Source: a virus (taxonomy: Duplodnaviria > Heunggongvirae > Uroviricota > Caudoviricetes). From it: DNA of 36,995 nt. The stretch lies in the IMG/VR virus record IMGVR_UViG_2565956608_000011. One strand, given 5' to 3'. Shown one piece after another: positions 2,621 through 35,880 of this stretch (position 1 is the first letter of the stretch; each line of letters opens with the position of its first letter). A program made the translations under genes and the position numbers. The notes under the pieces are model-generated. The model ran no database searches and was not told the DNA's origin. It was given only the letters and a program-made list of their open reading frames with translations.

Positions 2621-2732
2621 AACTGAAGTTGCCCTGAAAATGAAATTTTTTTGCACAACCGCAGAACTTTTCCGCAGGGCATCAGTCTTAATTAGTGCCA
2701 CTGCTTTTCTTTGATGTCCCCATTTTGTGGAG

Positions 2733-2775: not shown

Positions 2776-2855
2776 GTTGCCTGAAATTTAAGCTGTTTAA
2801 AATCATGATGTTAGAAACACTGTTTTTTAACGATGGCGACAAAATGGCGGCAGCG

Positions 2856-3074: not shown

Positions 3075-3164
3075 TTTTCGAGTTCTCCCCATTTTTGCTA
3101 AATTCACAATAATGATACCGCATTATTCCATTTTGCAAACTTAAAAGTTCTCCATTGCGAAGAA

Positions 3165-4747: not shown

Positions 4748-7700
4748 GCGTCGTATCCCCCCTGATCGCTGTAGTTACTCCTGGCTTTTGCCTTCAGCCT
4801 GCGTTCACGTTCATCAAGCTGGCGGGCCACCTCCCGCGCAATATCCTGCGCACTTTGTCCTGGCTGCGTCTGAATGATGATCTGCGTCGGTGCCTCAATC
4901 CGTTGAACGGGCGGCACAGTGGCTGCACGACTCACCATCGCTTCGCCGCCTTTCGCGGGAAGTGCCAAAGGATGTAACGGTGGAAGCTCTGTAGGCGCGG
5001 CAGCAACGCCCATCATTCCGGCAACAACCGCAGCCAGTGCAGCGGTATTTCTCCGGCTGGTCACGTTTGCCGGGCCGTTGACAATTTCCGGCCCGTTTTC
5101 ACCGACGATGCCAAACTGCCCGCGCGGGATATAGCCGCCGCTGTCATACATCCCCGCAAAGCCATATCCCCATGACGGAAAACCACCCGATGGCATCATC
5201 ACTTTACCGTCTGCATTCACCGTCGCAGGTTGCTGACGCGTCACGCTTTCCGGCAGTTTAGCCTTTGCAGCCTCTTTACTGACAATGCCGAGTTTATCCA
5301 GCAACCAGGAAACGCCGGATTTCAGGGAGTCCAGCGGATGCATGACCATATTCAGCCCTTCCGCCAGTGCCTCCCCGAATCGTCGCCCCATTGCCGCTGC
5401 GCTCTGCAGTTCGGCAGAGGTCGACTTAACAGGCGTCAGCAGATCAGTAAACCAGCCCCACAGCGCCTGCACTTTGTCGCCAATCCACTGGAACACGGGC
5501 TTAAGTGGTTCAAACGCTGCACTGATGGGACCTGCCGCCGCTTTGAATCCTTCCACCACGCCACCGAGAAATGCGGTGATGGGTTGCCAGTATTTCCAGA
5601 CAACCAGCGCCACACCCGCCAGTGCAGTAACCACAAGACCTATCGGACTAAGCAGAGCACCTAACAGACCAGATATGGCATACAGGGCAACGCGCAGCAT
5701 CGCCAGCGGACCAGATGCAAGCACTCGCAGCACCGCGCCTGCGGCTGCCAGTCCACCGCGCAGTACCGCCAGAGGATTCATAAACATCACAGCAACAGCA
5801 CGTAAACCGGATAATCCAGACCGCAAAAGTGCAACTGGCGCACCTGCTACAGTTTTCAGGACATTTCCCGTCAGTGATGCCGTGCGGCGCAAAGACGACA
5901 ACGGCGCAGTAAGTAAACCTGCGGCGTTGCCCGATGAAGCAAGCCCGCGTCGCAGCAGTGCCAGTGGAGCGCCAGCCAACCAGGACAACGCGTTGCTGGT
6001 TCGAGTTACTGCTGCCGTAACGGAAGGTAACGTTTTGATACCCAGCACAGAGAATCCCAGACGGATCACTGCCAGCGGCCCCAGCACTGCAGCCATCGCC
6101 ACCGCTAAGGTGCCTAGGCCTACGGTAACCGCAGCCACAACAGCCGCTACTTTCATCAGTGTGCCTGTCAGTTCCGGGTTAGCTTCCACCCAGCGACGCA
6201 ACGCCCCCGTGACGCTTTTCACCGTGTAAAGAATATCCATCAGCGGCTGGCGCAGCGTTTCACCCAGGCTGCTGAAGGTGTTCTGCGCTCCGGTTTTGAC
6301 CAGCAACCACTGCGCAGAAAGTGAGTCCTTGTTAATGTCGGATTCTTTCTGCATGGAGCCGAGCGCATCATTGCCCGCTGTCAGTTTTAGCTGGCGCTGC
6401 AGTTCCGGCAGGTTGTTTGCCAGTTTCGCCGCGTCATCGCCAAACTCTTTACCAAACAACATTGTCATGGCAGACAGGCGCTTATCCTGCGGCAGTGCGT
6501 TCACCTTCTCCAGTACGCGCTGGATGGTTCCCATCGCATCCTTCGTCATCTGCTTTTCAATCACTTCAGGATTGAGTTTCAGCAGATTCATCCCTTCAAA
6601 GAAACTCTTGCTTTGCATGGTGGCAATGGACAATTCACGCACCATCGCGTTTGCTGCACTGGCAGCAACCTCCGGTGCAGCGCCCAGTGTCAGGAAGGTG
6701 GAACCCAGCGCCGCCGCTTTACGATAATCCAGACGATCAGCCACACCGCCCAGACGTTGCATCACATCAATGATGTCCGCCCCTTTCGACATGGCGTTAT
6801 CATCCAGATAGTTCAGCGCATCGCCGAGCTGTTCAATATTGCGGGTAGGGATTTTGTAGAGCTGGGCGATTTTCCCCAGACTTTCTGACAGTTCATCCGC
6901 TGGCAGCTCAAAGGCTGTTGCCGCCTTTGCTGCCGTACTGGCGAAGGCCAGCAGGTCACGTTTCTGGTCTTCCCAGCTGTCGTCAGGGTTTGCAACGTTC
7001 ATACGCGCACCACCTTCAACCAGTGCAGCGAAGTCCACCGCACCGTTTTCCATCGGCAACTGTTCGCTGGCAGCTTTGATGGCATCCTGCATTTCATAAA
7101 AACGTGCAGTGCGGTTGCCATTATCGTCACGCAGACCATTGACCTGCTTTGCCACACCTTTCATGGCATCTTCCATGCTGGTATAGCTTTTTACTGCCGC
7201 CATCACTGGCGTCCCCATTGCCAGCCCTGCAGCCGTGGTGGTGGCTCCGGCTCCTGCGATGCGATCGCGCACCTCCAGCGAACGGGCATAACTGGCACGC
7301 GCTGCATTCATCCTGCGCTGAGCTTCCCCCAGTCGCTTCAGCCGCGCCTCCTGTTTCGACAGTTCCTGGTTATAACGTGATGTTTCACGGGCTAAACGGG
7401 CAGTTGCTCCCGCATCATCTTTCGCAGAAATTCCCGCCCGGTACAGTTCTGCACGCACAAGCGCCGTTTGCTTCTGCAAATATTTTTGTTGTTCTTCCAG
7501 ACGTTGGACTGCCAGCGTTTGCCGACCTAAAGCCACAAGGTGCCGTTGTGATGGTTGTTCCATCGACTCCAGCTCAGAGCTAAGCAAATTAGCCTTCTGT
7601 CTGGCATAGTTCAGCCTGTCGCCTAACTTCTTGTTATCGGCCTGCAGCTTGCGAAATTTTTCCAGGCTGTTACCCGCCTGATTGAGTTGCTTTAATGCGT

Positions 7701-7824
7701 CACGGGAGTTTCTGATTGCGCCAGCCAGCTCTTTCGAACTGGCCTGTGCAGCACGGAATGGGCGGGTGAGTTTGTCAACCGCATTAAGAATGACCTGCAG
7801 GCGCAGGTTGTTATCACTCATCAT
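4744..7824 (-). CDS. T: tail tape-measure protein
   Basis: 1026-aa ORF; N-terminal coiled coil, central Ala/Gly/Leu-rich hydrophobic repeats, position after E/E'. Confidence 0.9.
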   Translation of the reverse strand: MMSDNNLRLQVILNAVDKLTRPFRAAQASSKELAGAIRNSRDALKQLNQAGNSLEKFRKLQADNKKLGDRLNYARQKANLLSSELESMEQPSQRHLVALGRQTLAVQRLEEQQKYLQKQTALVRAELYRAGISAKDDAGATARLARETSRYNQELSKQEARLKRLGEAQRRMNAARASYARSLEVRDRIAGAGATTTAAGLAMGTPVMAAVKSYTSMEDAMKGVAKQVNGLRDDNGNRTARFYEMQDAIKAASEQLPMENGAVDFAALVEGGARMNVANPDDSWEDQKRDLLAFASTAAKAATAFELPADELSESLGKIAQLYKIPTRNIEQLGDALNYLDDNAMSKGADIIDVMQRLGGVADRLDYRKAAALGSTFLTLGAAPEVAASAANAMVRELSIATMQSKSFFEGMNLLKLNPEVIEKQMTKDAMGTIQRVLEKVNALPQDKRLSAMTMLFGKEFGDDAAKLANNLPELQRQLKLTAGNDALGSMQKESDINKDSLSAQWLLVKTGAQNTFSSLGETLRQPLMDILYTVKSVTGALRRWVEANPELTGTLMKVAAVVAAVTVGLGTLAVAMAAVLGPLAVIRLGFSVLGIKTLPSVTAAVTRTSNALSWLAGAPLALLRRGLASSGNAAGLLTAPLSSLRRTASLTGNVLKTVAGAPVALLRSGLSGLRAVAVMFMNPLAVLRGGLAAAGAVLRVLASGPLAMLRVALYAISGLLGALLSPIGLVVTALAGVALVVWKYWQPITAFLGGVVEGFKAAAGPISAAFEPLKPVFQWIGDKVQALWGWFTDLLTPVKSTSAELQSAAAMGRRFGEALAEGLNMVMHPLDSLKSGVSWLLDKLGIVSKEAAKAKLPESVTRQQPATVNADGKVMMPSGGFPSWGYGFAGMYDSGGYIPRGQFGIVGENGPEIVNGPANVTSRRNTAALAAVVAGMMGVAAAPTELPPLHPLALPAKGGEAMVSRAATVPPVQRIEAPTQIIIQTQPGQSAQDIAREVARQLDERERRLKAKARSNYSDQGGYDA

Positions 7825-8250
7825 TGGCCCCGCTTCTCTGAATCGCTTTATACCGCCATTCCAGCACTTCGGTCAGCGGCATAACGTCAGTAACGGATGG
7901 CGGCCAGTGAAAAATGGTGGCGATATCTGCCACCAGATCGTCAACCGTCAGGCTGTCGGTAAACCGGCAAGCACCGACTTCTTCAACAAAAAAGTGACAA
8001 CCTCAACCGACATGGCGGTGAGATCTGCCGGGTCCATCTCTGCAATTTCCTGTGCGGTCAGTGCCGGGCTGGAGATGCGGGGGATCACGGTCATCATCGC
8101 GTTCACATCCATATCCATAATGGCCTGCAGGCGTGTACCGCGCAGCGCACCGGACTGCGGTTTACGCAGCACAATTTCGGTAATTTCTGTTTTACCGCGC
8201 TTGATAGGGGTATCCAGTTGAATGGTCTTTTCAGTCTGCTTATCGCTCAT
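7814..8250 (-). CDS. E': tail assembly chaperone E+E' (predicted programmed -1 frameshift product)
   Basis: hand translation of the -1 frame from the slippery site (7987-7993) is open for ~57 codons and stops at 7814-7816, a few nt past the T start codon, as in P2 E/E' and lambda G/GT. Confidence 0.6.
7948..8250 (-). CDS. E: tail assembly chaperone E
   Basis: 100-aa ORF between FII and T containing a TTTTTTG slippery heptamer near its 3' end. Confidence 0.8.
   Translation of the reverse strand: MSDKQTEKTIQLDTPIKRGKTEITEIVLRKPQSGALRGTRLQAIMDMDVNAMMTVIPRISSPALTAQEIAEMDPADLTAMSVEVVTFLLKKSVLAGLPTA
7987..7993 (-). other. -1 ribosomal frameshift slippery heptamer T_TTT_TTG
   Basis: minus strand reads ACT TTT TTG TTG AAG in the E frame. 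Confidence 0.6.
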
Positions 8251-8304
8251 TTTGTTGTCCTGTGAATTGGGTTCTGGCGCGGAATCCCGCGCCGTTCAGA
8301 TACA

Positions 8305-8820
8305 TCAGAGGCCGAGGGCGTTGCGGTGCGCTTCCATCAGGTCCACACCGTCCACAATTTCCACCATGTTGATAAGGTCCACTTCATAGAGCACCTCACC
8401 ATTGATGGTCAGCTTCGCGTAGCTGTTGGTACTGGTCACTTTGGTGGTGTTGCTTTCGCCCGTCTTCCACTCGCCGGAATCCACTTCTTTGTGACGTCCA
8501 CGCACCACAAGCTCCACGGCCTGCACTTCTCCGGTATCGTCACGCTGGATAGAGCCGGTAAAGCGCAACTGGATGCCATCCACCGTGGCTTTGCCCATCT
8601 GCTTAAACAGCAGCAGTTCAGTACCACCAATGGAAAATTCTGTGTCCAGCGCACTTTCATCAAGCCCCAGATCCACATCAACTGCACCAGGCATTCCGCC
8701 GCCGCGATACTTCTCATATTTGCGGGTGAATTTCGGCAGCGTCAGCGACTCTACGATCCCCTGCCAGTTGTTCCCGTCGTTAAACAGGTTCAGATGTTTT
8801 AATTTGCGTGGTAAAGCCAT
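8305..8820 (-). CDS. FII: tail tube protein FII
   Basis: 171-aa ORF directly downstream of the sheath gene; P2 synteny. Confidence 0.85.
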   Translation of the reverse strand: MALPRKLKHLNLFNDGNNWQGIVESLTLPKFTRKYEKYRGGGMPGAVDVDLGLDESALDTEFSIGGTELLLFKQMGKATVDGIQLRFTGSIQRDDTGEVQAVELVVRGRHKEVDSGEWKTGESNTTKVTSTNSYAKLTINGEVLYEVDLINMVEIVDGVDLMEAHRNALGL

Positions 8821-8829
8821 GTTGTCCCC

Positions 8830-10002
8830 TTACGCGCTGACCTGGCTGGCGAAATTCACCAGGTACTGATCGGTGATGCGCTGGCGCAGCATCAGATTTT
8901 CAAGTGGCGGCACTGGCGTGTAGTCGTAGTCGATGGTGAGTTTTCCGGCTTTCAGGGTGTCTTTGTCGTTCACCGACTCGTCCAGCCAGCAATCACCACC
9001 AATGAGATACCCCTGACTTACCAGGCTGCGCATTTTGGCGCGGATACCTTCGATAATGTCGCGGGCCAGCGACGGGTTCAGCGGTTTGTCCACCGCCCAC
9101 ATGTGCGCTTCTGCCATTGTGTCCGTCAGCACCTGCGCCGTGCGGGTGTAGTTTTCGAAGGCAAAGAGTGGGTCATCACTCAGGCAGCGGGAACCCCAGA
9201 AGCGAAAGCCGTCTTTGCGGATAAGTGTGGTAACATCGTTCTGGTTAAGCAGTCCCGCATCAGTTGCCGGGTCCTGCAGATCCCAGAACACATCAGCAGA
9301 AATTCCGGTGACACCGTTCACGCCCACGTTGGACAGGCTTTTGTGCCACCCTGTCTGCTCATCAATTTTGGCACGCAGACCGAGCGCACGGGCGGTGGCA
9401 TATGCCGTTGCGTCGGCATTCAGCACCGTGTCCCAGCCAGTAAAGTCAGGCCAAATCAGCATTCCTTCGCGCTGGCTGAAGTTTTCACGGTAAGTGATCG
9501 CCTCCTGTACCGTCTTGCAGCCATACGCTGACAGGTAAGCAAACCCACGCAGGCTTTGCGCCACGCTCAGCAACTCAGTCGCAACGGCTTTGTTATCGTG
9601 ACCTGGCACGCCGAGAATGCGCGGTTTAACGCCGAGCTGTGACTGGGCAGATAGCAGGGCTTTCATGCCTGTTTTTTTACCTTCAGCAGTCACAGCGCCG
9701 ATGATATTGGTCGTGGTTTCGTCTTCCGTTTCACCCTGCGGCACACGCACAACAACGGTCACGGGTTTTGCCTGATCAGCGATGGCATCCAGCGAACGGG
9801 CCAGAGTACCGGACTCACCCGCTTTACCGCTGGCAGTCAGCACATCAGTGATCAGCACGGGTTTATTAAGAGGAAACATTTTTGCATCGGCATCATCGCC
9901 CGTGCAGACCATACCCACGATGGCGGTGCTCACCGTGGTAATGGATCGGGTGCCTTCGTTGACTTCAACAACGCGCACCCCGTGGTGGTAATCCTGAGCC
10001 AT
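8830..10002 (-). CDS. FI: contractile tail sheath protein FI
   Basis: 390-aa ORF, first gene of the FI-FII-E-T-U-D block. Confidence 0.85.
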
Positions 10003-10144: not shown

Positions 10145-10711
10145 TCAGGGGGATTCATTGCTCTTATTTGCCGGAAATTTTCTATAAATGGTAGAAACGC
10201 CTACATCAAAAATCAGTGCAATACGCTGTCTTGATTCTCCGGCCTCGAGTAAACGTCCAATCTGTGCCCACTGTTCGGTGGTCAACTTAGGACGGCGTCC
10301 ACCTACTCTGCCTTTGGCGCGAGCTGCAGCAAGCCCCGCCCTGGTACGTTCAACTATCAGTTCGCGCTCCATTTCAGCCAGGCCCCCCATGACATGAAAA
10401 AAGAAACGGCCCATTGGGGTGCTGGTATCAATACTGTCAGTCAGGCTTCGGAAATTCACGCCACGCTGACGCAACTCTTCTATCAGCGTAACAAGATGCC
10501 GCATACTGCGTCCCAACCTGTCCAGCTTCCAAACAACCAGCGTGTCTCCTGCCGATAGTGTCCTGAGTAGTTTTTTCAGCCCCGGTCTGTCGGACTTAGT
10601 GCCACTGATTTTGTCCTCAAAAATCCGCTCACATCCCGCGCAGTTCAGTGCATTACGTTGCAAATCGGTGTTCTGGTCATTTGTTGACACGCGTACATAG
10701 CCAATAAGCAT
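10145..10711 (-). CDS. serine-recombinase DNA invertase (Gin/Cin/Pin/Hin family)
   Basis: N-terminus MLIGYVRVSTNDQNTDLQRNAL with catalytic-Ser region, C-terminal HTH (GVSTIYRKF); start taken at ATG 10711 (AGGGGA RBS 6 nt upstream) rather than 10717. Confidence 0.85.
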   Translation of the reverse strand: MLIGYVRVSTNDQNTDLQRNALNCAGCERIFEDKISGTKSDRPGLKKLLRTLSAGDTLVVWKLDRLGRSMRHLVTLIEELRQRGVNFRSLTDSIDTSTPMGRFFFHVMGGLAEMERELIVERTRAGLAAARAKGRVGGRRPKLTTEQWAQIGRLLEAGESRQRIALIFDVGVSTIYRKFPANKSNESP

Positions 10712-10766
10712 GATCATTCCCCTGAATAAAAACCGGAGATGATGCCAGTTAGCTGTTACCTCTGCA

Positions 10767-10792
10767 TTTTCATAAACGTTGGTTTGGGAGAA
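10767..10792. repeat. 26-bp invertase crossover site (cix/gix/hix-like), invertase-proximal
   Basis: TTTTCATAAACGTTGGTTTGGGAGAA; its 14-nt right half equals the reverse complement of the left half of the site at 12658-12683; half-site resembles the Hin/Gin consensus TTCTCnnAAACC. Confidence 0.7.
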
Positions 10793-11152
10793 GCAGCGAA
10801 ACGGGGTGTGGGGACAGGGGAAAATCAGATACCGGACATGGCCTCTTTTGCCAGTGGTGATGGATGGATGAAATTACCCAACGGGAAAATCCTGCAATAT
10901 GGTCGTGGTGCGGTTACGCCGACATTATCGACGCAAACAATGAGAATTACATTCAGCATCCCTTTTCCTAAAAAAGTGGACTGCGCCATGCTTACTCATT
11001 CTGGTGATGGTGGTGCGCCTTTAGGTGCTGGGCGGGGATTCGTGATGACCGCAGAAGGCCCAACATTAACCGGTTTTAATTCCGCTTACAGAACTGCATC
11101 AACCAGTTCCACAGTATCGATGAATTACAGTTGGTGGGCTGTTGGTGAGTAA
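10793..11152 (+). CDS. alternative tail-fibre C-terminal segment (Hv'), silent in this orientation
   Basis: open frame continuing from the GLGE codons in the crossover site; would fuse in frame to the constant part of H after inversion; no own start codon. Confidence 0.6.
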   Translation, partial: AAKRGVGTGENQIPDMASFASGDGWMKLPNGKILQYGRGAVTPTLSTQTMRITFSIPFPKKVDCAMLTHSGDGGAPLGAGRGFVMTAEGPTLTGFNSAYRTASTSSTVSMNYSWWAVGE

Positions 11153-11172
11153 TTTTATTCAGGGTGATTTAT

Positions 11173-11616
11173 ATGAACGAATATGTTTATAGCGCAAGGC
11201 ATAATGCTTTTTTCCCTGTGGATATGATTGATAAATATAAATCAGAGGGATGGGATTTATCAGACGCTAAGGAAGTAAATCAAAATATTATCAGTGAGTT
11301 TATGGCTGAACCGCCACAAGGAAAAATCCGTATTGCCGGAGATGATGGGCTGCCTGCGTGGGCAGATATTCCTCCACCCACGCATGAAGAACTTATTGAA
11401 ATTACTGAATCAGAAAGACAGCTACTAATTAACCAGGCCAACGAATACATGAACAGTAAGCAATGGCCCGGTAAAGCCGCTATTGGTCGTCTGAAAGATG
11501 ATGAACTGGCGCAATATAATTTGTGGCTGGATTATCTGGACGCACTGGAACTGGTTGATTCCTCCAGTGCGCCAGATATTGAATGGCCTACGCCTCCGGC
11601 AGTTCAGGCCAGATGA
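11173..11616 (+). CDS. alternative tail fibre assembly protein (G')
   Basis: 147-aa ORF from ATG 11173 (AGGGTG RBS); C-terminus (DYLDALELVDSSSAPDIEWP) parallels that of the minus-strand G protein; convergent with G. Confidence 0.7.
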   Translation: MNEYVYSARHNAFFPVDMIDKYKSEGWDLSDAKEVNQNIISEFMAEPPQGKIRIAGDDGLPAWADIPPPTHEELIEITESERQLLINQANEYMNSKQWPGKAAIGRLKDDELAQYNLWLDYLDALELVDSSSAPDIEWPTPPAVQAR

Positions 11617-12190
11617 CATCCGGCGCGGTGCTGGTATCTGTTGCCGTCACCGCGTCAATGTAATCCAGCACAGCGTTAAGGCGGGTTGTTTCTGCCTGCG
11701 TCAGCTTCCGTCCGGCCTGTAATTTCAGTTGAATCAGACTGATGGAGGCCATTGCAGTATCAATCAGCGACTGGCGCAGTGCTTCTGCTGCATCTACTGC
11801 TGCGCCGTGCTGTGCCTCGGTATCTGTCACCCATTTCTCACCATTCCATTTATCGTATGGCGTTAACGGGGCGATAGTGGTTGTATTTTCAGGATAATCA
11901 CCCGGAGCTGTGATTTCTTTCGATTCTCCTGTTTCGGTGCTATAGACGATTTCACCGCGATGATCTGGCACATATTCCCATGAATTTAAATCCATCGAAC
12001 GGCAGATAGCATAACCCGCCTTATGTGTGCCAGGGGCATCTAAACAGGAATATGCAGGGATACCGACACCAATGGCAAGATATTCATTTGAAGTGGAAAT
12101 ATATTCCCGAGTTTCACCATCATAGTTATAGACGGTAATATTCCCCGCCTTCGTGGCAATAAGCTCGCTATTTAATACGGCGTTATCCAT
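11588..12190 (-). CDS. G: tail fibre assembly protein G
   Basis: 200-aa ORF immediately downstream of H with overlapping stop/start. Confidence 0.8.
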   Translation of the reverse strand: MDNAVLNSELIATKAGNITVYNYDGETREYISTSNEYLAIGVGIPAYSCLDAPGTHKAGYAICRSMDLNSWEYVPDHRGEIVYSTETGESKEITAPGDYPENTTTIAPLTPYDKWNGEKWVTDTEAQHGAAVDAAEALRQSLIDTAMASISLIQLKLQAGRKLTQAETTRLNAVLDYIDAVTATDTSTAPDVIWPELPEA

Positions 12191-22161: not shown

Positions 22162-23928
22162 ATGAACACCACACTGACACCCGCAGATCTCGATCCCCGT
22201 CGGCAGGCCATGCTGCTGTACTTTCAGGGATACCGCGTCGCCCGCATTGCTGAAATGCTGGGAGAGAAAGTTGCAACCGTTCACAGCTGGAAAAAACGCG
22301 ACAAGTGGGGTGACTATGGGCCGCTGGATCAGATGCAGCTCACCACCGCCGCACGCTACTGCCAGCTCATTATGAAGGAGCACAAAGAAGGGAAAGATTT
22401 CAAAGAGATTGACCTGCTGGCGCGCCAGTCGGAACGCCACGCGCGGATCGGCAAGTTTAACAATGGCGGCAACGAAGCCGACTTAAACCCTAACGTCGCC
22501 AACCGTAACAAAGGCCCGCGCCGTCAGCCGGAAAAGAACGTTTTCACCGATGAACAGATTGAGAAGCTGGAAGAAATCTTCCATTCCTCCATGTTCAACT
22601 ACCAGCGCCACTGGTGGGAAGCCGGAAAAACCAACCGCATCCGCAACCTGCTGAAGTCACGCCAGATCGGCGCGACCTTCTATTTTGCCCGTGAAGCCCT
22701 GATTGACGCCCTGCTAACCGGGCGTAACCAGATTTTCCTTTCCGCCAGCAAGGCTCAGGCCCACGTCTTTAAGCAGTACATCATCGACTTCGCCAAAGAA
22801 GTGGAGGTGGAGCTGAAAGGCGATCCGATGGTGCTTCCTAACGGGGCCACGCTTTACTTCCTCGGCACCAATGCCCGCACTGCCCAGAGTTATCACGGCA
22901 ACCTGTATCTGGATGAATATTTCTGGATACCGAAATTCCAGGAGCTGCGCAAAGTGGCTTCCGGTATGGCTATTCACAAGAAATGGCGACAAACCTATTT
23001 TTCCACGCCATCCAGCCTGACTCATAGTGCTTATCCGTTCTGGTCCGGTGCGCTGTTCAACCGTGGGCGCAACAAAGCCGATAAGGTGGACATCGACCTG
23101 TCCCACAGCAATCTGGCCCCCGGCCAGCTGTGCGCTGACGGGCAGTACCGCCAGATAGTCACCGTGGAAGATGCGGTGCGCGGCGGCTGTAACCTGTTCG
23201 ACCTTGACCAGTTGCGCATGGAGTACAGCCCGGACGAATACCAGAATCTGCTGATGTGCGAGTTTGTGGACGATCTCGCGTCCGTGTTCCCGCTCAGCGA
23301 GCTGCAGGCGTGCATGGTGGACAGCTGGGAAGTTTGGACCGACTTTCATGCACTGGCGCTGCGCCCGTTTGGCTGGCGCGAAGTGTGGATCGGTTATGAC
23401 CCGGCAAAAGGTACGCAGAACGGCGACAGCGCCGGATGCGTGGTGGTGGCACCGCCAGCCGTGCCGGGCGGTAAGTTCCGCATTCTTGAGCGTCACCAGT
23501 GGCGCGGGATGGACTTCCGCGCCCAGGCTGACGCCATCAAAAAACTGACTGAACAGTACAACGTGACATACATCGGTATCGACTCAACCGGCGTCGGTCA
23601 TGGGGTTTACGAGAACGTGAAAGCGTTTTTTCCTGCCGTCCGGGAGTTTGTCTACAACCCCAACGTTAAAAATGCCCTGGTACTCAAGGCCTACGACATT
23701 ATCAGTCACCGCCGTCTGGAGTTTGACGCCGGACACACCGACATAGCGCAGTCATTTATGGCAATCCGTCGCGCCACCACCGCCAGCGGCAACCGCCCGA
23801 CCTATGAAGCCAGCCGCAGCGAAGAAGCCAGCCATGCCGATCTGGCGTGGGCAACAATGCACGCACTGTTTAACGAACCGCTGCAGGGCGAGTCCGCCAA
23901 TACCAGCAATATTGTGGAGATTTTTTGA
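22162..23928 (+). CDS. P: terminase ATPase (large) subunit P
   Basis: 588-aa ORF divergent from O, upstream of and overlapping the portal gene. Confidence 0.85.
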   Translation: MNTTLTPADLDPRRQAMLLYFQGYRVARIAEMLGEKVATVHSWKKRDKWGDYGPLDQMQLTTAARYCQLIMKEHKEGKDFKEIDLLARQSERHARIGKFNNGGNEADLNPNVANRNKGPRRQPEKNVFTDEQIEKLEEIFHSSMFNYQRHWWEAGKTNRIRNLLKSRQIGATFYFAREALIDALLTGRNQIFLSASKAQAHVFKQYIIDFAKEVEVELKGDPMVLPNGATLYFLGTNARTAQSYHGNLYLDEYFWIPKFQELRKVASGMAIHKKWRQTYFSTPSSLTHSAYPFWSGALFNRGRNKADKVDIDLSHSNLAPGQLCADGQYRQIVTVEDAVRGGCNLFDLDQLRMEYSPDEYQNLLMCEFVDDLASVFPLSELQACMVDSWEVWTDFHALALRPFGWREVWIGYDPAKGTQNGDSAGCVVVAPPAVPGGKFRILERHQWRGMDFRAQADAIKKLTEQYNVTYIGIDSTGVGHGVYENVKAFFPAVREFVYNPNVKNALVLKAYDIISHRRLEFDAGHTDIAQSFMAIRRATTASGNRPTYEASRSEEASHADLAWATMHALFNEPLQGESANTSNIVEIF

Positions 23929-24953: not shown

Positions 24954-24994
24954 TCACCTTAAAATTAAAATAACCATAAAACATTAGTAATCTA

Positions 24995-25016
24995 AAGAGG
25001 CGCTAGAGCGCCTCTT
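24995..25016. terminator. putative bidirectional terminator hairpin between Q and the cargo NTPase gene
   Basis: perfect 9-bp GC-rich stem AAGAGGCGC-taga-GCGCCTCTT; flanking T/A tracts are weak. Confidence 0.4.
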
Positions 25017-25025
25017 CTAATTATC

Positions 25026-26585
25026 TCAACCTTCATAGAGAAGTTTTTTCTTACGTATCTCTTCACTAAATGTCTTGGAATTCAAGTCAATCAAATTAAG
25101 ATCTCGAACTTTTCTAGATGCTGTATATTGACTAGTATCCAGCATATATGCCTCAAAAACTAAGCCATCAGCACCTTTCTTCAAAGTAACCCGAGACTGG
25201 ACTAAATGCACTAATCTTAAATCAATTAACTGGTTAATAGCATCCTTGACAGGGCCAGTCATTTTTTGATTAATTAGAAAAATATTACATTTTGCATCAT
25301 TCAAACAAAATGCCACAAGTTTTGTGAATGCTTCCTCCAAGGCAATACGATCATCATCAGCATCTAATTTAAATTCTTCACGCTTGATATCACCATATTC
25401 ACCAGTAGCAAGATTCACATCTTCTGCACCAATTCGAGGACCTCTAGGATGATCTGGCCCTCTTTCTCTCGCATGGTTAATAGCTTTAGTAAATATCCCA
25501 ATAAAGTCCCTAGTAACACCACCCGAAGCAATAATCAACCTATCTACTGCAGTCGTATTTAATAGTCCATTTACTGTGATAGGCGGCGTTTCTACCATTA
25601 GATTAGTGAGTATTTTTTGCATAAACTGTTTTAAAGTTGCAAATTTTTCCAAAGAAATATCTATATTTATTTCTTTTGCATCATCACCAAGTTTAACACC
25701 AGTAGGAGGATCTGTATGAATATACCATTCACTTCTATGCTTGATAGTACCAATTTTCAACCACAAACCATTTCCTTTGGCAACCCTATGAAAATAATCA
25801 ATAACTTTAGCCTGATCACTTCTTCTAATATGATATAGATCATCAAGTATTAAATATGCCGGCCCTTCAGACAATTCGGAAAGTTTGTTAAAAAACCTTT
25901 GAAACTTAAGTATATTTTGATGTAAGTATTCAGTTTTTAATGATTTATATCCTTCACTAATTTCTTTGGTACCTGTATTTCCTTTTTTAACTCCCACTCC
26001 TACATCTACTGGACCTTGCTTCAAGGAAGCATTACCAGAAGCTTCAAAACTTCTTGTGGAAGTTTCCTTTCTTTGCACATTAATTTCTTCTGGCTGCAAA
26101 AGTTTATTTTCTAAATCTTGAATGATGCCTTTGAGCTCACGGACAAGCTCATTTGTAGGATTTTTTTTGAAAGGTTTCCTTTCCGGCGCTCTACCAAAAA
26201 TTCGATTCCAAAAAGTAGTTTTAGTAGCTGGGGTTAATGCAGCAGTTTCTAACCAAACCTCGAATTCTTGTAGGCTTTTAATAAGAACACTAATTAGGAC
26301 ATCAGGGTATGAATGACCTTTAAATGTCTCCATATCAACAAAAGAAATTGGTCTTCTATCTATTGTTAGATCTGCAACTACCTTCCTCAACAATGAGGAC
26401 TTACCAGAGCCCCTTCTACCAAAAATCAAACTGTGCTGCTTGGCTTTCGATTGAGCAAGAACGCCAGGCGCGGGTTCTATGAATCTCTTGACATTTTCAG
26501 GCGTAGCCCTCATAGCTTCATCACACAAAATGATCAAGTTATCTACTTGTTCATCTCTTAACTGAGATATTTCGTTTTTAGACAT
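25026..26585 (-). CDS. cargo P-loop NTPase of unknown function (candidate anti-phage protein)
   Basis: 519-aa ORF with Walker A GRRGSGKSS (aa ~57-65) and Walker-B-like LILDDL (aa ~240) separated by a Lys/Glu-rich insert; AT-rich unlike the phage backbone; AAGGA RBS. Confidence 0.6.
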   Translation of the reverse strand: MSKNEISQLRDEQVDNLIILCDEAMRATPENVKRFIEPAPGVLAQSKAKQHSLIFGRRGSGKSSLLRKVVADLTIDRRPISFVDMETFKGHSYPDVLISVLIKSLQEFEVWLETAALTPATKTTFWNRIFGRAPERKPFKKNPTNELVRELKGIIQDLENKLLQPEEINVQRKETSTRSFEASGNASLKQGPVDVGVGVKKGNTGTKEISEGYKSLKTEYLHQNILKFQRFFNKLSELSEGPAYLILDDLYHIRRSDQAKVIDYFHRVAKGNGLWLKIGTIKHRSEWYIHTDPPTGVKLGDDAKEINIDISLEKFATLKQFMQKILTNLMVETPPITVNGLLNTTAVDRLIIASGGVTRDFIGIFTKAINHARERGPDHPRGPRIGAEDVNLATGEYGDIKREEFKLDADDDRIALEEAFTKLVAFCLNDAKCNIFLINQKMTGPVKDAINQLIDLRLVHLVQSRVTLKKGADGLVFEAYMLDTSQYTASRKVRDLNLIDLNSKTFSEEIRKKKLLYEG

Positions 26586-26677
26586 TGGAAAATCCTTTTA
26601 GGAAAAAGCTCAAGCTATCAAGAATCCTTTATCCGAACAACTGTTTTAATTTATATATCTATCTGGTTCAGCGCGCG

Positions 26678-26696
26678 CTCGTATCCCCGCCACGCC
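26678..26696 (-). other. cos-like sequence (candidate cohesive-end site)
   Basis: minus strand reads GGCGTGGCGGGGATACGAG; the first 13 nt match the 19-nt cohesive end recalled for 186 (GGCGTGGCGGGGAAAGCAT) and resemble P2 (GGCGAGGCGGGGAAAGCAC); lies in the expected Q-to-A interval. Confidence 0.4.
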
Positions 26697-26966
26697 TGCC
26701 CGCTTTATGTAGTGGTTTTCATGCACCTGCATGCTCTACGCAAAAGCCCGCCAGTTCTGGTGGGCCTTAGCAATAACGATCCTCAAACGATCATGCAATC
26801 TCATGCAGTATAGGCATGCACAACAACTTACCTTAAGAAAAAACATCTGATATGCCCAACTGTTTCGTCTCTTTTCCAGTAGCTTGCTATGGCTTATCTT
26901 TAATGCAACTGTAATCGTGTATGAAGATACAATCCCTACCAATCATAAAAATGAGGAACACAAAGA

Positions 26967-27707
26967 ATGACTGTGCACAAGCTCTCTGGTGCGTTTTTCC
27001 ACGATATGCAGGTTGAGTGGCCCTGCCCTAACTGCAATCAGAAAACCCTACAGATCATTAAAGAAAGTTTCGTCTCGTATGACACACATGATACCCGAAA
27101 ATTCCGCAGTGAAGATTGGTTTGAACCAGAAATGGATTCATCTATTTTCAGTTGCATGGCCCGCTGTTCAAGAATGCAATGTGGTGAAGTTGTGGCCTGT
27201 ACTGGTAAGAGTGGATGGGAACAAGGTTGGGATGAAGAAAGAAATGATATTGAGTACTATCAATGGCACAGACCTTTCACCTTTTACCCATCACTGCATC
27301 CTTTCGAAATACCTAAAAAATGCCCAGAAGAAATTACCGAACCGCTTGAAGCCTCATTTTCCATTTTCCTAATACAGCCTGGCGCAGCAGCAAACCTAAT
27401 TCGAATTTCAGTTGAAAGAATGCTAACCGCTATGGATGTAGCTGAACGTAATGATAATGGCAAACGCATAACTCTACACCACCGTTTAGGGATGCTACCT
27501 GAATTATACGGATCGTTTTCAAGACCTCTTATGGCAATTAAATTTTTAGGAAATGCCGGAAGCCATACCTACGATGAAGTAAAAGTCAAAGACATTGAGG
27601 ATGCTTTTGAGATTATGGAGTACGTCGTCAATGACTTGTTCTCCGGTCGCAAAGAATCTGTCGAAGTATTGACGAAACGATTAAGTGAAAAATTCAAAGA
27701 AAACTGA
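26967..27707 (+). CDS. cargo protein: N-terminal zinc ribbon plus C-terminal DUF4145-like domain (candidate defence protein)
   Basis: 246-aa ORF with GAGGAA RBS; CPNC...C-x3-C-x4-C cysteine cluster; C-terminal region (LGNAGSHTYDEVKVKDIEDAFEIMEYVVNDLF) resembles DUF4145 from memory; AT-rich. Confidence 0.55.
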   Translation: MTVHKLSGAFFHDMQVEWPCPNCNQKTLQIIKESFVSYDTHDTRKFRSEDWFEPEMDSSIFSCMARCSRMQCGEVVACTGKSGWEQGWDEERNDIEYYQWHRPFTFYPSLHPFEIPKKCPEEITEPLEASFSIFLIQPGAAANLIRISVERMLTAMDVAERNDNGKRITLHHRLGMLPELYGSFSRPLMAIKFLGNAGSHTYDEVKVKDIEDAFEIMEYVVNDLFSGRKESVEVLTKRLSEKFKEN

Positions 27708-28421: not shown

Positions 28422-30836
28422 TTAATACAGATCCCGCCACTTATCATCTTCCTGCAAACGCTGGTTCCGATAGAAGATACGCAGGCCTGCTCCTGACGGA
28501 ATACTGCCGCCGCGAAGGAGTAAATCGACCTCTTTCTCGCTGCCATCAAATCCTCTGGACTTCAGTTCATAGACGAGCTGCTGTCGTTGATGGTCTGTAA
28601 TTCGCTGTTTGTAGTCTCTACGCCGTTTCGGTTTCACCAGGCGTAACCTTGCAGCCAGTTCCCGGCGTTCTTTTTTGTTCATACTGTGCAGGTAATCGTG
28701 CAACTCCTTGTCATCCATACGGGTGATATCCGTTCTGGTATCCCCATCAGCTGATTTGTCTTTCCCTTGTTGGTACAAATTTTCAGCAAGGGGACAGTTA
28801 TTGCCACGAGTCCAAGGGGCGCAAGCGCCCTGGTCGGCTGCCGCCTCCTGAACATCAACGGCCTTACGAACCATTTTCCACTTCACGGCATGAGTGCAGA
28901 TCTTGCCCTCTGCAATAGGTGACCAGATGCCATAAATACGAATGCCGTGATCGCCATAGGCGGTCGGCTCTTCGTTGATTTCATAAGCGGTTCTGATGAG
29001 GTGATATTTGCGGGGAACCAGTACGCCGCCCTGCTTCATGATGTAGGTGGCAAAACAACCAGCATCAGCAGCAGCCAGGATGGCATCAAGGCGTGGGTTA
29101 TCCAGTACCGGCGCACCTGCTTTTTTGTCCCCCTGTTGCCTTGCCGCCTGACCAGCCAGCAATCGCAGTTCACGGTAAGCCTGACGCCCCGGAATGCCAA
29201 AGAAGCGGAATTGCTGAACACGATGCAGAGACGCCCAGGCATTAACGTATTCAGCATTATCACGCAGGGATTTCCCCGTTTCCTTGCTGATCTCGCCAGC
29301 CAGACCACGCCCGTCAATGTTCTTACTGATGTATTTCGCGATGTAGCTTGTTGGCGTTCCTTTGCGCGGGTTAATCAACTCAGACTTAAAGCGCGGCCCA
29401 GTGTTATTGCCCAGCTCCTCGCGGTCTTCACGGATGGCAAACTTACGCAGTAATGCAGTGATGGCACGGCGGTCTTTTTTGCGCATGAAACACAACAGGT
29501 GCCAGTGAACTGTGCCGTCATGATGCGGCTCAGCCACCCGCACGCCATACCAGCGCAACCCGGCTTTGTGCATCGCCTTACGAAATGCAGCAAACATGCC
29601 GACCAGATAATCGCTGCTTTGTCTTACCGTCGCGTTTGTCCAGGTCGGGTTTGGTCTGCCGTTATTGAGCGTGGAATGGAAACGTGACGGACAGGTGATG
29701 GTGTAGAAAACGGCGCAGTCACCGCGCATTTCCGCGATAAGCTCCAGACCTTTAACACAGGCCATCATCTCATTGCGGCGATGCGCCGGGTTGCTGCTGC
29801 TGGCGTTTACCACATCCTCCATGTCCAGCGTGTCGCCGTCTTCGTTCACCAGTTCATGAGAACGGAAAAACTCCAGCGACTTACGGCGCTGCTCACGTTT
29901 ATGCATCACGGCTTCATAGCTGACATAGGGAGATGCTTTTTTGCTGACCAGGCAGACAGCACGCAACTGCTCTTCCCGCCATTCGCAACGCATCTTCCAT
30001 AATTTCCGATACCACCAATCGGCGCACAACATACGCGCCAGCGAACCCGGAATGAGTTCATAGGGCACGGGTTTACGGCGGTTTCTTTTCCAACGGAGTT
30101 GCTCAAACGCAGGAGGGATTACATCCAGACGCAGGGTTTCCGCTGCCACCTTTTCCCATGTCTTGCGGATTTCTTCTGGCTTAACGTCATCGGTGGCATA
30201 CAAATCACCACAAGCTGCATCAAGGCACATGCTCATATGCGCGGCAACAAGGGTAGACAGGCGCTTCACCTGATCCTGACTCATTTCAGGCAGGATCAGC
30301 AGGCCGTCCAGCCCTTCATGGCTTGCCATAAAGCGAAAAGAAGTGGATAGCTGACTCTCGCGTACATGCTCCAGTCGTTCCAGACATGGCTTAATCGTCT
30401 CACGCAAATAGCGGGAATAAGCCTTTGGCCTGCCCAGGCTGCTGAAGTATTCAATACGTTGCATCAGCGGCTTGCTGATATGGGAAGGCTGGGCGTTGAC
30501 GTCCGCCAGAATGACCATATCCGGATTAAAACGCTGCTGCTCATGCGCCAGCTTTGCCCGACTAATGAGCTTATCCTGCTCGATTTCGCGCTGGACAGGA
30601 TCACGGGATTCATTAAAGAAATAACGCTCCCAGACCTGATCACTCAGCGCCTCACGGCGCAGCTGTTCCTGCTCGTTATCGGCAGCGTACAGAGTGATCA
30701 GGTTTGAAAGCGCAGAAACCGGCGCAACTTCCGCCGGGTCCAGATAAGGGTTAATGGCCTTTTTCGGGCTGCTCCATGAGAATGCTGCTGCGACCTCGTT
30801 AAAGCCGCTGCAGTTGTTCATATCAGCATGGCTCAT
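28422..30836 (-). CDS. A: replication initiation protein A (rolling-circle nickase type)
   Basis: 804-aa ORF, last large gene of the early operon; recognised as P2/186 gpA-like. Confidence 0.85.
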
Positions 30837-33586: not shown

Positions 33587-34183
33587 ATGTCAACATCAAA
33601 GTACCCAAATGAGATCAAAATAAATCCCAATAAAGGTGGTAAGGCTGCGATTGAGCGATTAGTCGAAGCTTATGGCTTTACGACACGACAGGCTTTAGCT
33701 GATCACTTGGAAGTATCAAAAAGCACTCTGGCGAACAGGTATTTGCGGGATACGTTTCCTGCAGACTGGATAATCCAATGTGCTCTTGAAACAGGAACCT
33801 CACTGAAATGGTTAACCACCGGGCAAGGCCTTAAGCAAAGCTCGCTGACAGCAGCTACAGAAGAGCTTGCCAAGTTTCGCCTTACCGCAGGCAAAATGAT
33901 TGAAGATGGTTCATATGTCTTCGATTCATCATTTCTTCCTGCAAATCTTTCATCACCAATTGTTATTCAGGATGGGCTCGTCACATACATTTGTGATCAA
34001 AAATTTTCTGAAGTACTTGATGGGCACTGGTTAATCAACATCGACGGAACCTATTCCATTCGAAAAATCACAAAGCTTCCAAAAGGTATGATTAAAATTA
34101 CAAGTACAGAGAATAGCTTTGAATGTGCATTTTCTGATATTGAAGTAGTTGCTTGTATAAGAAGTACAATAGTTTCAAATTAA
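33587..34183 (+). CDS. cI: immunity repressor CI (186-type, two-domain)
   Basis: 198-aa ORF with N-terminal HTH region (TTRQALADHLEVSKSTLANR), placed between apl and int. Confidence 0.75.
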   Translation: MSTSKYPNEIKINPNKGGKAAIERLVEAYGFTTRQALADHLEVSKSTLANRYLRDTFPADWIIQCALETGTSLKWLTTGQGLKQSSLTAATEELAKFRLTAGKMIEDGSYVFDSSFLPANLSSPIVIQDGLVTYICDQKFSEVLDGHWLINIDGTYSIRKITKLPKGMIKITSTENSFECAFSDIEVVACIRSTIVSN

Positions 34184-34203: not shown

Positions 34204-35880
34204 ATGAATTCATTTTCCATCGTTATATTCTTATTAGCATTTCTCGCCCCCATTCTAGCTGTAATATTATTTAAGCAAAGCAAAAAACATAAAGCGGCTA
34301 TAGATACCTTGACAGCTAACAACATAGCCCTTTCCAACCAACTGAAAGAAAATCAAGAAGAATTAGCACAGACTGTACGAGATCTATCAGAGCTTGAAGG
34401 ACGAGCTGCACCATTATGGCAATACGTAGAATTGCACAGCGCAGTGATGGAAGCAGAGAATAAGATAAAAAATGCAGACTCAATAGCCAGGCAAAAAATA
34501 GAAGAAGCCCAAATAAAGGCTGCTAAGACAGTAAACGAAGCAAATTATCAAGCTCAGATAAAAATAAGCAACGCTAATAGCGAAGCTATAGCAATTACTA
34601 AAGACGCTCGCGATGCACGCCTGAAAGCTAAAGAACGTCTTGATAATGCCAATAGTAAAGCAAATGAGCTGATCTCAAATGCTAATGACAATGCAGTGAA
34701 AATTATTTCCGATGCAGAAGAAAGAGCAAAAGAGATTGCTGGTTCAGCATATGAAGCTAAAGAGTTTGCAGAAAAATATGAAGCAGTTGCCAAATCAATG
34801 AAAAATAAAATTGAAGGTTATGGTGATGAATGGATCATCCCTAACCGTAGCGTTCTCGATGAATTGGCAGAAAATTATGAGTTTACAGATGCAGGCAAGG
34901 AATTACAAAAAGCCAGGGAGTTAACAAAATCATTAATAAAAACTAATAAAGCTGCTTCGTGTGATTATGTTGAACAAAACAGGCGTAATACTGCTATCAA
35001 CTTTGTTTTAGATGCCTTCAATGGAAGAGTTGACAGTATTTTATCAAAAGTCAAACACAACAATTTTGGAAAACTTTCCCAAGAGATAAAAGATGCGTTT
35101 CAACTTGTAAATTACAATGGTTCTGCCTTTAGGTCCGCAAAAATAAGTGACATCTATCTTCAAGCTCGACTCAACGAGCTAAAATGGGGTGTTGCAGTTA
35201 ATGAAATTATGCTCGAAGAAAAAGAAGAGCAAAGAAGGATTAAAGAACAACTTCGTGAAGAGGAAAGAGCTCGTAGGGAGTATGAAAAAGCGATAAAAGA
35301 AGCTGAAAAAGAAGAGAAAGCTATTCAGCAAGCTATAAATAAAGCAACAAAAGAGCTTATGCTTGCAAATGAAGAACAACGCTTAGCTTTAGAGCAAAAA
35401 ATAGCTGAACTACAGTTAAAATATGAAGAAGCTGAAGCTAAAAACCAACGAGCTATTTCTATGGCTCAACAAACTAGATCAGGCCACGTTTATATAATTA
35501 GTAATATTGGCTCATTTGGCGAAGATGTATATAAAATTGGAATGACACGCCGCCTTGAACCACTTGATCGTGTTCGTGAACTCGGTGATGCTAGTGTTCC
35601 TTTTTCGTTCGATGTTCATGCGATGATTTATAGTGATGATGCACCATCATTAGAAAATCATCTGCATAAAGTCTTCAACGAAAAACAGGTCAATAAAATT
35701 AACTCACGAAAAGAGTTTTTCAACGTAAATATTAAAGAAATTAAGTCTGTTATTGAAGATATGAACATCAACGCACAATGGACAATGTTTGCGGAAGCGA
35801 AAGAATATAGAGAGTCACTGGCGATTGAGCAAGAGCGCAAAGCAGCAACTTCCGCCAACGATGAACTGCATGTTGCTTAG
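34204..35880 (+). CDS. cargo protein: N-terminal TM anchor, long coiled coil (DUF4041-like), C-terminal T5orf172/GIY-YIG-like domain
   Basis: 558-aa AT-rich ORF inserted between cI and int; hydrophobic N-terminus SIVIFLLAFLAPILAVILF; repeated NANS/NADS heptad segments; C-terminal HVYIISN...YKIGMTRRLEPLDRVREL. Confidence 0.6.
   Translation: MNSFSIVIFLLAFLAPILAVILFKQSKKHKAAIDTLTANNIALSNQLKENQEELAQTVRDLSELEGRAAPLWQYVELHSAVMEAENKIKNADSIARQKIEEAQIKAAKTVNEANYQAQIKISNANSEAIAITKDARDARLKAKERLDNANSKANELISNANDNAVKIISDAEERAKEIAGSAYEAKEFAEKYEAVAKSMKNKIEGYGDEWIIPNRSVLDELAENYEFTDAGKELQKARELTKSLIKTNKAASCDYVEQNRRNTAINFVLDAFNGRVDSILSKVKHNNFGKLSQEIKDAFQLVNYNGSAFRSAKISDIYLQARLNELKWGVAVNEIMLEEKEEQRRIKEQLREEERARREYEKAIKEAEKEEKAIQQAINKATKELMLANEEQRLALEQKIAELQLKYEEAEAKNQRAISMAQQTRSGHVYIISNIGSFGEDVYKIGMTRRLEPLDRVRELGDASVPFSFDVHAMIYSDDAPSLENHLHKVFNEKQVNKINSRKEFFNVNIKEIKSVIEDMNINAQWTMFAEAKEYRESLAIEQERKAATSANDELHVA

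Follow-up and report, generated by a model that had tools for sequence, protein, structure and literature searches.

An ORC/Cdc6-like AAA+ ATPase in the slot between portal gene and cos of a P2-type prophage, a candidate single-gene immunity determinant

The 36,995-nucleotide stretch of IMG/VR virus record IMGVR_UViG_2565956608_000011 (the window; unless a locus is named, positions refer to it) holds a P2/186-type prophage, which carries an AT-rich gene for a 519-amino-acid (aa) ATPase between its portal gene and its cos site. The ATPase is a member of Pfam family PF24389 (ORC-CDC6-like) and is predicted by structural modelling to be an AAA+ protein of the ORC/Cdc6-STAND type with a C-terminal winged helix. 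We think that it probably, though with no great certainty, serves in immunity by lysogenic conversion, be it superinfection exclusion or anti-phage defence. ORC/Cdc6-STAND ATPases in mobile conflict contexts, cargo of the P2 hotspot and the Pfam entry itself are already known; what is new is a solo, effector-less and conserved clade with a hairpin insert, stably resident in the slot between Q and cos (Q-cos slot) of a P2-like lineage.

An earlier interpretation of the letters alone (the sequence-only reading) had placed a 519-aa protein at this locus, and its boundaries were exact: the list of open reading frames (ORFs) gives the same extent, with an ATG start and an AAGGA Shine-Dalgarno (SD) sequence 8-12 nucleotides (nt) 5' of it (Table 1). 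The product bears the RefSeq name WP_023150398.1, 'hypothetical protein', in the annotation of a 100%-identical stretch of E. coli MB20. With a G+C content (GC) of 35.7%, compared to 54.5% for the terminase P and portal Q genes and 53.3% for gpA, the gene is indeed AT-rich against the phage backbone. Comparison with two P2-borne alleles of 85-87% identity (L016 and L019) gave a nonsynonymous divergence (pN) of ~0.09-0.10 while the synonymous divergence (pS) was saturated at ~0.8; on these figures the ORF is judged to be real and not a chance one, and the gene appears to be under strong purifying selection. Both Walker motifs that had been recognised in the protein were retained in an alignment of 107 homologues (24-87% identity), in which their key residues are invariant or 99% conserved.

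The sequence-only reading had called the protein an orphan that could not be assigned to a family, and neither description stands. The ATPase scores 38.8 bits against PF24389 at a cut-off of 27 (E 6.5e-10), matching in two short stretches, and the same assignment is precomputed for nearly all of its 120 closest homologues, where it is flagged 'faint'. A search of 1.84 billion cluster representatives revealed at least 861 matching clusters at 50% identity (E <= 1e-3). Most of these 861 clusters are 480-590 aa long and align over nearly their full length, the shorter ones being fragments, and no fused effector is evident among them. Pfam matches below threshold were obtained for AAA_16, ATPase_2 (PF01637; 21.2 bits, cut-off 33.2), AAA_22 and KAP, and nSTAND6 gave an E value of 0.038. 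The NCBIfam model for P-loop ATPase Sll1717 (NF047389) reached 53.5 bits against a cut-off of 75 and aligned residues 35-268 with positions 16-215 of 454; by this alignment the ATPase would be a relative of the Sll1717 family that stands outside it. PADLOC, NCBIfam and PHROGs provided no family assignment, PHROGs yielding nothing useful. In agreement with what had been read from the sequence, no nuclease, Toprim or helicase C-terminal domain was detected by Pfam, PADLOC, NCBIfam or PHROGs or in the structure model, and no TIR, HEPN, transmembrane element, repeat or effector domain was found in the ATPase.

The structure was modelled from 107 diverse homologues (predicted local distance difference test (pLDDT) 92.1; predicted template modelling score 0.89). 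This model replaced one built from 30 close homologues, which was uninformative (pLDDT 66; Foldseek template modelling (TM) score <0.3). Foldseek searches with the 107-sequence model revealed Orc1/Cdc6 proteins and PF01637 ATPases as best matches (ORC4, 2e-6). Sequence searches of the PDB, with the single sequence or a profile, returned P-loop matches only, and the top RecA matches were an artefact of concatenated repeats. The model displays, in this order, N-terminal helices (50 residues), strand 1 with Walker A, strand 2, an insert, Walker B, strands 4 and 5, a lid, a 44-residue helix and the winged helix. The prediction thus combines an AAA+ core bearing Walker A and B with a lid that has the sensor-2 arginine (R), a strand-2 insert and a winged helix at the C-terminus. 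A conserved GTIxHRS motif lies at strands 4 and 5 and contains R284, a candidate arginine finger. The insert occupies the place of the helical insert that follows strand 2 in ORC/Cdc6 proteins and is the least conserved part of the protein. Its beta-hairpin is the variable region of the family, with the highest column entropy (3.17 bits compared to ~1.95 in the ATPase cores) and a pN of 0.24-0.59, compared to 0.02-0.09 in the cores.

The ATPase gene appears to carry expression signals of its own. A scan for consensus promoters called none upstream of it, and the putative promoter listed in Table 1 was missed because its -10 element is weak; the promoter geometry is repeated in two diverged P2-borne alleles (TTGATG, 17 bp, TAAGTT or TAGTTT). 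The GC-rich inverted repeat at the other end of the gene is probably a bidirectional terminator, and the diverged P2-borne alleles each show a GC-rich hairpin of their own there. An Rfam search of the cassette revealed no family and no small RNA. A palindrome, TCCTAAA(A/G)GGA, overlaps the SD sequence (26590-26605, minus strand) and is conserved in the window and in the L016 and L019 alleles; Rfam gave nothing at this palindrome, which could occlude the ribosome-binding site or could be a binding site itself.

The element comprises ogr, tail, lysis and capsid genes, terminase P (22162-23928), portal Q (ending at 24953), the ATPase gene and cos, followed beyond cos by a DUF4145 gene (26967-27707), DinI, a small ORF, gpA (28422-30836), Dam and the CII/Fil/CI region. 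The window and E. coli MB20 (NZ_CP073976) share 99.5% identity over positions 1-32556; to the right of 32556 the two are divergent, and MB20 annotation coordinates are usable only left of ~32.6 kb. The suggestion that the gene lies between the portal gene and a cos-like site was verified by alignment to the annotated P2 cosL and cosR, which showed cos flanks, AAGCGGGC and GCGCGCTGA, identical to those of P2, and by the end of the linear genome of Salmonella phage SEN8, which falls at 26697. A search with the P2 cos 19-mer allowing up to 3 mismatches gave no match, and the site was found by these two routes instead. With 83 P2-like phages the window has only the segment 26664-26825 in common.

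Between cos and Q there are 1724 bp here but only 167 bp in P2, where the stretch holds the tQ terminator. Because of this difference we read the ATPase gene as a cassette of ~24954-26667, inserted within ~10 bp of the cos core on its portal side. The sequence-only reading had placed the gene in the hypervariable region that holds old and tin in P2. This is right for the hotspot, which is the same cos-proximal A-Q region, and wrong for the position within it: P2 old and tin lie on the opposite, gpA side of cos and the Q side is just 167 bp in P2, so that the ATPase gene occupies a different slot of the same hotspot. P2 has no cargo in the Q-cos slot, and other cargo is found there elsewhere; in strain SY3626 it is occupied by a different, unrelated 671-aa AAA ATPase. 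The A-Q hotspot of P2-like phages is a validated reservoir of anti-phage systems (Rousset et al. 2022, PMC9122126). The ATPase protein is listed as 'hypothetical' in Table S5A of that study, in three hotspot arrangements, and was too rare there for curation or testing. A 2026 survey found only unknown genes at the main defence locus in 19% of P2-like phages, and 6 of 8 tested P4 satellite hotspot loci of unknown content proved defensive (PMC13586616).

The ATPase gene was present in 4 of 5,426 complete E. coli genomes, and the DNA across cos differs in 3 of the 4. The DUF4145 gene, located on the other side of cos, is found without the ATPase gene in hundreds of E. coli genomes, and alignment of E. 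coli genomes places the recombination breakpoints at cos. These comparisons indicate that the ATPase gene is a single-gene module which recombines independently of the DUF4145 gene across cos.

Alleles of 85-87% identity lie tail-to-tail with the portal gene in other P2-like prophages, one of them from Pseudocitrobacter. Portal, terminase and scaffold proteins of the same prophages are 77%, 85% and 61-63% identical to those of the window, respectively; the ATPase cargo has therefore diverged no faster than the phage backbone. The alleles suggest long co-inheritance of the ATPase gene with one phage lineage. Conservation of a cargo gene at the level of the large terminase, and above that of portal and scaffold, is unexpected for a hotspot described as hypervariable. 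A copy in Pantoea (82% identity) is adjacent to what is left of a portal gene. An Enterobacter hormaechei allele of the same 90% cluster (P0286) encodes 436 aa that are 93% identical and end exactly before the winged helix (residues 1-436). It was found on 264 contigs, compared to 163 for the full-length E. coli protein, and is either a truncation that a successful clone tolerates or a form that functions without the winged helix.

Among 100,044 species genomes (one genome per species) there were 211 matches, and the phylum span and the loci are described here from the best 80 of these. They belong to more than 12 phyla, including Proteobacteria, Acidobacteria, Verrucomicrobia, Planctomycetes, Chloroflexi, Nitrospirae, Cyanobacteria, Bacteroidetes, Firmicutes, Actinobacteria and Elusimicrobia, with 40-50% identity across phyla. 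The GC of the gene was lower than that of its flanks in 69 of 75 loci, by a mean of 9 points (Wilcoxon p = 4e-12). ORFs were shorter than 470 aa in 9 of the 75, and 5 further loci had no intact ORF; some of the truncations are contig ends. Clustering of all neighbours within 4 kb at the 75 loci revealed no conserved neighbour, the largest cluster being an ABC transporter at 4 loci. The nearest neighbours are mostly housekeeping genes (LepA, GlnRS, XseA, IMPDH, DnaE); the 136 nearest neighbours include three TIR, two PIN and two DUF3800 proteins and a few restriction-modification or PADLOC matches. The segregation at cos and the lack of a conserved neighbour in the 75 genomes both agree with the single-gene unit that had been proposed from the sequence.

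In Serratia ureilytica (L004) a homologue of 73% identity forms a 1.9-kb single-gene insertion between aroA and cmk, with a GC of 37.7% compared to 58%. The insertion is bracketed by a 47-nt direct repeat (7721-7767 and 9660-9706 of the locus) that duplicates the aroA terminator; a search at nine other chromosomal loci revealed no flanking direct repeats, so that Serratia is the only case. The solo gene of Sideroxyarcus adjoins two toxin-antitoxin pairs, and that of Nitrosospira lies between ssb and a comEA-like gene. On plasmids the family was present in 1 record of 72,556. It was not found in cultured phage genomes except in one Bradyrhizobium prophage, ppBdUSDA122-1 (L022, 882-4040), where a homologue of 30% identity lies between the integrase and a tRNA-Thr end and is split into two ORFs by a transposase of the IS1380 family.

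IMG/VR viral contigs yielded 13 matches, among them distant full-length relatives of 21-29% identity (hhalign for L034: probability 100%, E 3.6e-45). In three of these contigs, a 170-173-aa HEPN or HEPN-like gene lies directly upstream of the ATPase gene and is translationally coupled to it (L032, 4490-5002; L033, 981-1502; L034, 7105-7620), overlapping it by 4 nt in two. The upstream protein of L032 matches Pfam HEPN (3e-7), and the L034 partner is homologous to it (E 8e-11). The L033 and L034 partners have no Pfam or PADLOC match, are homologous to the L032 partner and carry an RNxxxDYxH motif. From their arrangement, HEPN protein and ATPase look like an unannotated two-gene HEPN plus ORC/Cdc6-like system. 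In L029 the ATPase gene overlaps a downstream gene for a protein with pentapeptide repeats and TIR (2603-5371). In L030 a family member (7986-9509) lies 180 nt downstream of a trypsin-like protease (6981-7805), which is the PADLOC candidate PDC-S45 (E 7.6e-121); PDC-S45, listed by PADLOC as a single-gene candidate, may really be a two-gene system. L035 abuts an integrase, and the solo-type members L026 and L027 (48% identity) follow a lambda-type terminase gene. The HEPN-coupled clade is without the beta-hairpin (4-7 residues compared to 46-63) and has an insert of 59-71 residues, whereas TIR-coupled and solo clades retain the hairpin. Searches of the neighbours with an HEPN-partner profile (hmmsearch) and with the L029 TIR domain (jackhmmer) revealed only L105, a weak match at L026/L027 and the known operons.

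Counter-invader systems have been described in which an Orc/Cdc6 gene of a mobile neighbourhood is coupled or fused to TIR, pentapeptide repeats, STAND or KAP NTPases (Krishnan et al., PMC10853773), and BrxC and BrxD of BREX belong to the same ORC/Cdc6 clade (PMC12839542). The threshold score aligns the ATPase with PF24389, and the TIR/pentapeptide-coupled relatives of PMC10853773 match the L029 arrangement; the solo subfamily differs from those systems in having no nuclease insert, no HerA/FtsK partner and no TIR.

Circumstantial grounds for a defence role are thus the hotspot position, the signatures of horizontal transfer and the distant relatives coupled to HEPN or TIR. The PD-Lambda-1 match in the same prophage, the defensive P4 loci and the single-gene precedent DS-41 point the same way. 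We read the gene as self-contained prophage cargo, with a weak putative promoter of its own, one ORF and a probable terminator, that encodes a catalytically intact ATPase. If the ATPase does provide immunity to the lysogen, it would act as a nucleotide-dependent switch whose resting state is a closed monomer, the winged helix being packed on the nucleotide-binding domain through aspartate (D) 455, R457, histidine (H) 460 and D483. A winged helix with these four residues conserved and no basic patch fits a STAND-like intramolecular latch better than a DNA-reading head. A cue from the infecting phage would lead to ATP-dependent oligomerisation, with R284 as arginine finger and R359 as sensor 2; conservation of Walker A, Walker B, sensor 2 and the candidate arginine finger implies that the ATPase would be active on oligomerisation. 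Because there is neither an effector domain nor a linked effector gene, we propose that the oligomer itself is the effector: it may trap a protein of the phage, or the enlarged insert may let it load onto DNA that is being replicated or packaged. The enlarged insert is at the position of the strand-2 insert by which Orc1/Cdc6 and DnaA oligomers contact DNA.

Several observations weigh against a role in immunity. No effector was found, and the inhibitory step is pure inference. Matches to models of defence proteins in PADLOC and NCBIfam are limited to the surroundings of the P-loop and the beginning of the insert (mad8, 3e-6; DS41_1, 16 bits compared to 370). The chromosomal homologues mostly have housekeeping genes on either side and are not in defence islands. 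With 40-50% identity across phyla and pN/pS ~0.1, conservation is unusually high for an immune sensor. Constraint on the hairpin is relaxed, and a sliding ratio of nonsynonymous to synonymous substitution rates is uninformative on positive selection as synonymous sites are saturated. A mechanism by DNA binding is made less likely by a winged helix without a conserved basic patch. Within the phage collection the gene was not found in cultured P2-like phages. Literature searches on WP_023150398.1, PF24389 and Sll1717 found nothing, and no paper or supplement covers a test of the ATPase protein.

A bolder form of the immunity reading, which we regard as unlikely, holds that the solo clade represents a new mechanistic type of immune protein, complete in itself, in which there is no nuclease, NADase or membrane effector and an ATP-driven oligomer inhibits the phage. 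By means of the insert and the variable hairpin, this oligomer could, for instance, clamp onto the DNA of an invading or replicating phage or coat it, or could enclose a conserved protein of the phage. Such self-sufficiency would explain the spread of one gene over more than 12 phyla, the strong purifying selection and the co-divergence with the P2-like lineage.

The chief alternative is that the ATPase is the sensor or switch half of a system and recruits an effector encoded elsewhere in the host or the prophage. The relatives of 21-29% identity in operons with HEPN or TIR proteins speak for it, and so does the usual role of STAND and ORC/Cdc6-type ATPases, which is to control effector domains separate from themselves (PMC12839542, PMC10853773). 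However, the solo form is stable in more than 12 phyla with no recurring neighbour and, as the 1.9-kb Serratia insertion indicates, the cassette moves as one gene; with horizontal transfer so frequent, a gene that needs an unlinked partner would not easily keep it, and we consider this alternative unlikely.

No better, in our judgement, are the chances of a nucleotide-dependent factor outside immunity, acting in DNA transactions or regulation as a MalT-like STAND regulator, an initiator or a loader. The fold is common to Orc1/Cdc6, DnaA, TnsC, MuB and MalT, about a quarter of P2-like hotspots hold non-defence cargo such as partition systems (PMC9122126), and the strong sequence conservation and the housekeeping neighbours on chromosomes would suit such a factor. 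The solo copies, on the other hand, come without linked target genes, origin, transposase or partition partner. The sporadic distribution, low GC, frequent truncation and hotspot position, the single plasmid record and the coupling of relatives to HEPN and TIR toxins likewise speak against it.

Archaeal Orc1/Cdc6 proteins (PDB 2qby, 1fnn, 2v1u) and eukaryotic ORC subunits share only 10-17% identity with the ATPase, and the TIGR02928 orc1/cdc6 model gave no match to it. They have a short helical motif where the ATPase has its ~150-residue insert with beta-hairpin, and Orc1/Cdc6 genes are origin-linked, whereas the ATPase gene is AT-rich cargo beside cos with solo copies between housekeeping genes.

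The truncated and interrupted copies, namely the short or broken ORFs at the chromosomal loci, the widespread Enterobacter hormaechei allele without winged helix and the Bradyrhizobium homologue split by an IS1380 element, could also be expected of a toxic or addictive selfish gene, or of a functionless remnant of a two-gene system which has lost its effector. We hold this to be quite improbable: purifying selection has been long (saturated pS, pN ~0.1), alleles keep 85-87% identity though portal and scaffold have fallen to 77% and 61-63%, the catalytic motifs are all invariant, and there is neither an antitoxin-like partner nor a small RNA.

Among the named systems, the closest in appearance is DS-41 ('AAA2', WP_033812887.1, 502 aa), a single-gene AAA ATPase that protects E. 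coli against several BASEL phages (DefensePredictor, PMC13092281). Like the ATPase it is encoded by a single gene for ~500 aa, has Walker A near position 55 (FGQRGAGKS) and Walker B separated from it by a long insert, and shows no effector that can be recognised. The homology is confined to 93 columns around Walker A (hhalign probability 83%, E 8.5e-6; BLASTP E 0.085), and the ATPase scores 16 bits against a cut-off of 370 for the DS41_1 model (NCBIfam NF053860; E 0.005), which indicates a different family. P2 Old resembles the ATPase as an ATPase cargo gene with its own promoter in the cos-proximal A-Q region of a P2-type prophage. It differs as an ABC-type ATPase with C-terminal Toprim on the gpA side, whereas the ATPase is an AAA+ protein with winged helix and no nuclease on the portal side; a Pfam search of the ATPase for the OLD-type domains AAA_15 and AAA_21 gave no match, and the sequence-only reading was right that the protein is not Old.

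The PF01637 archaeal ATPases (PABY2304, 2qen; SSO1545, 2fna), the family of RADAR RdrA, are matched below threshold, and the ATPase gene has no RdrB-like partner. STAND NTPases such as Avs/AVAST, bacterial NACHT proteins, CED-4/Apaf-1 and plant NLRs differ from the ATPase, which in its 519 aa has neither C-terminal TPR, LRR or WD40 repeats nor an N-terminal effector. BrxC/PglY and BrxD act in BREX operons of 6-8 genes with a methyltransferase and PglZ, none of which is linked to the ATPase gene, and the PADLOC BrxC model did not match the ATPase. The match to mad8 of MADS (PDLC04140) is partial (E 3e-6; residues 49-201 on 27-130 of 314), and none of the eight genes of the mad operon is linked to the ATPase gene. 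That the ATPase is a divergent member of a named system (P2 Old/OLD, PARIS AriA, Gabija GajA, Septu PtuA, Avs, RADAR RdrA, BREX BrxC/BrxD, MADS or DS-41) is highly improbable, since beyond the partial matches at the P-loop and the start of the insert (in addition to mad8, DS41_1 and DS-41, HerA at 0.004 and PtuA at 0.02) nothing matches, every curated cut-off is missed widely, the protein is AAA+ and not ABC, without Toprim, and the defining partner genes or extra domains are lacking.

ORC/Cdc6- and STAND-type ATPases play a central part in the immunity of organisms as different as bacteria, plants and animals, and to our knowledge every characterised immune ATPase of these types controls a separate effector. 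If an effector-less single-gene ATPase does protect its host, either immunity has a new mode, direct inhibition of the phage by the oligomer, or the ATPase makes use of unlinked host machinery. A defensive function would add at least 861 clusters at 50% identity to annotation tools for defence genes, which now miss the family; a function outside defence would be a caution against equating hotspot cargo with immunity. The gene is readily testable, being 1.6 kb long and from E. coli, with natural alleles that include one without winged helix and with clear point mutants.

Table 1. Features of the ATPase gene and the adjacent cos site (window positions; residues are those of the ATPase)
Feature	Position	Strand	Description
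ATPase coding sequence	25026..26585	-	519 aa, ATG start; stop codon 25026-25028; from ORF list
Walker A / P-loop, residues 56-63 (GRRGSGKS)	26397..26420	-	GRRGSGKSS = 56-64; G56, R58, G59, G61 and K62 invariant in 107 homologues
Walker B, residues 244-249 (YLILDD)	25839..25856	-	LILDDL = 245-250; D248 invariant, D249 99%; strand 243-248 in model
Insert between strand 2 and Walker B, residues 93-240 (~150)	25866..26309	-	Predicted by model: long helices 93-113 and 141-163, beta-hairpin, helices 217-223 and 225-239
Beta-hairpin, residues 165-216	25938..26093	-	Strands 167-179 and 204-216 confident; Gly/Ser/Thr/Lys-rich tip 183-202 disordered, pLDDT <50
Lid (helical bundle), residues 336-386	25428..25580	-	Sensor-2-like SGGVxRDF; R359 and D360 invariant; motif in all clades including HEPN- and TIR-coupled
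Winged helix and tail, residues 433-519	25029..25289	-	Winged helix 433-482; conserved D455, R457, H460 and D483; tail of ~35 residues
Putative expression signals	26593..26640	-	-35 TTGTTC 26635-26640, 17-bp spacer, -10 TAGCTT 26612-26617, SD AAGGA 26593-26597; inferred
GC-rich inverted repeat AGAGGCGCT / AGCGCCTCT	24988..25023	.	Between convergent portal and ATPase genes; from inverted-repeat search
cos core GGCGTGGCGGGGATACGAG	26678..26696	-	Reverse complement; 14 of 19 positions as in P2 cos core; boundary of the cassette; conserved cos region ~26664-26825

Further cargo was observed elsewhere in the prophage. The DUF4145 protein on the gpA side of cos (plus strand; Pfam 5e-13; phrog_1305 2.5e-49) is weakly similar to PD-T7-4 (PADLOC 2e-5). 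A second AT-rich island (GC 36.9%) at 34204-35880 on the plus strand encodes a 558-aa protein that matches the validated defence gene PD-Lambda-1 (PADLOC E 4e-120). It is located between an ORF for a CI-type repressor (33587-34183) and the last ORF of the window; the corresponding slot of E. coli MB20 holds a hypothetical protein, an N-acetyltransferase and an ASCH protein instead. Within 10145-12190, where the GC falls to 44-48%, a recombinase-family gene (10145-10711, MB20 annotation) adjoins oppositely oriented genes for a tail-fibre C-terminal part and tail-fibre assembly, and by its gene arrangement this region looks like an invertible tail-fibre (host-range) switch.

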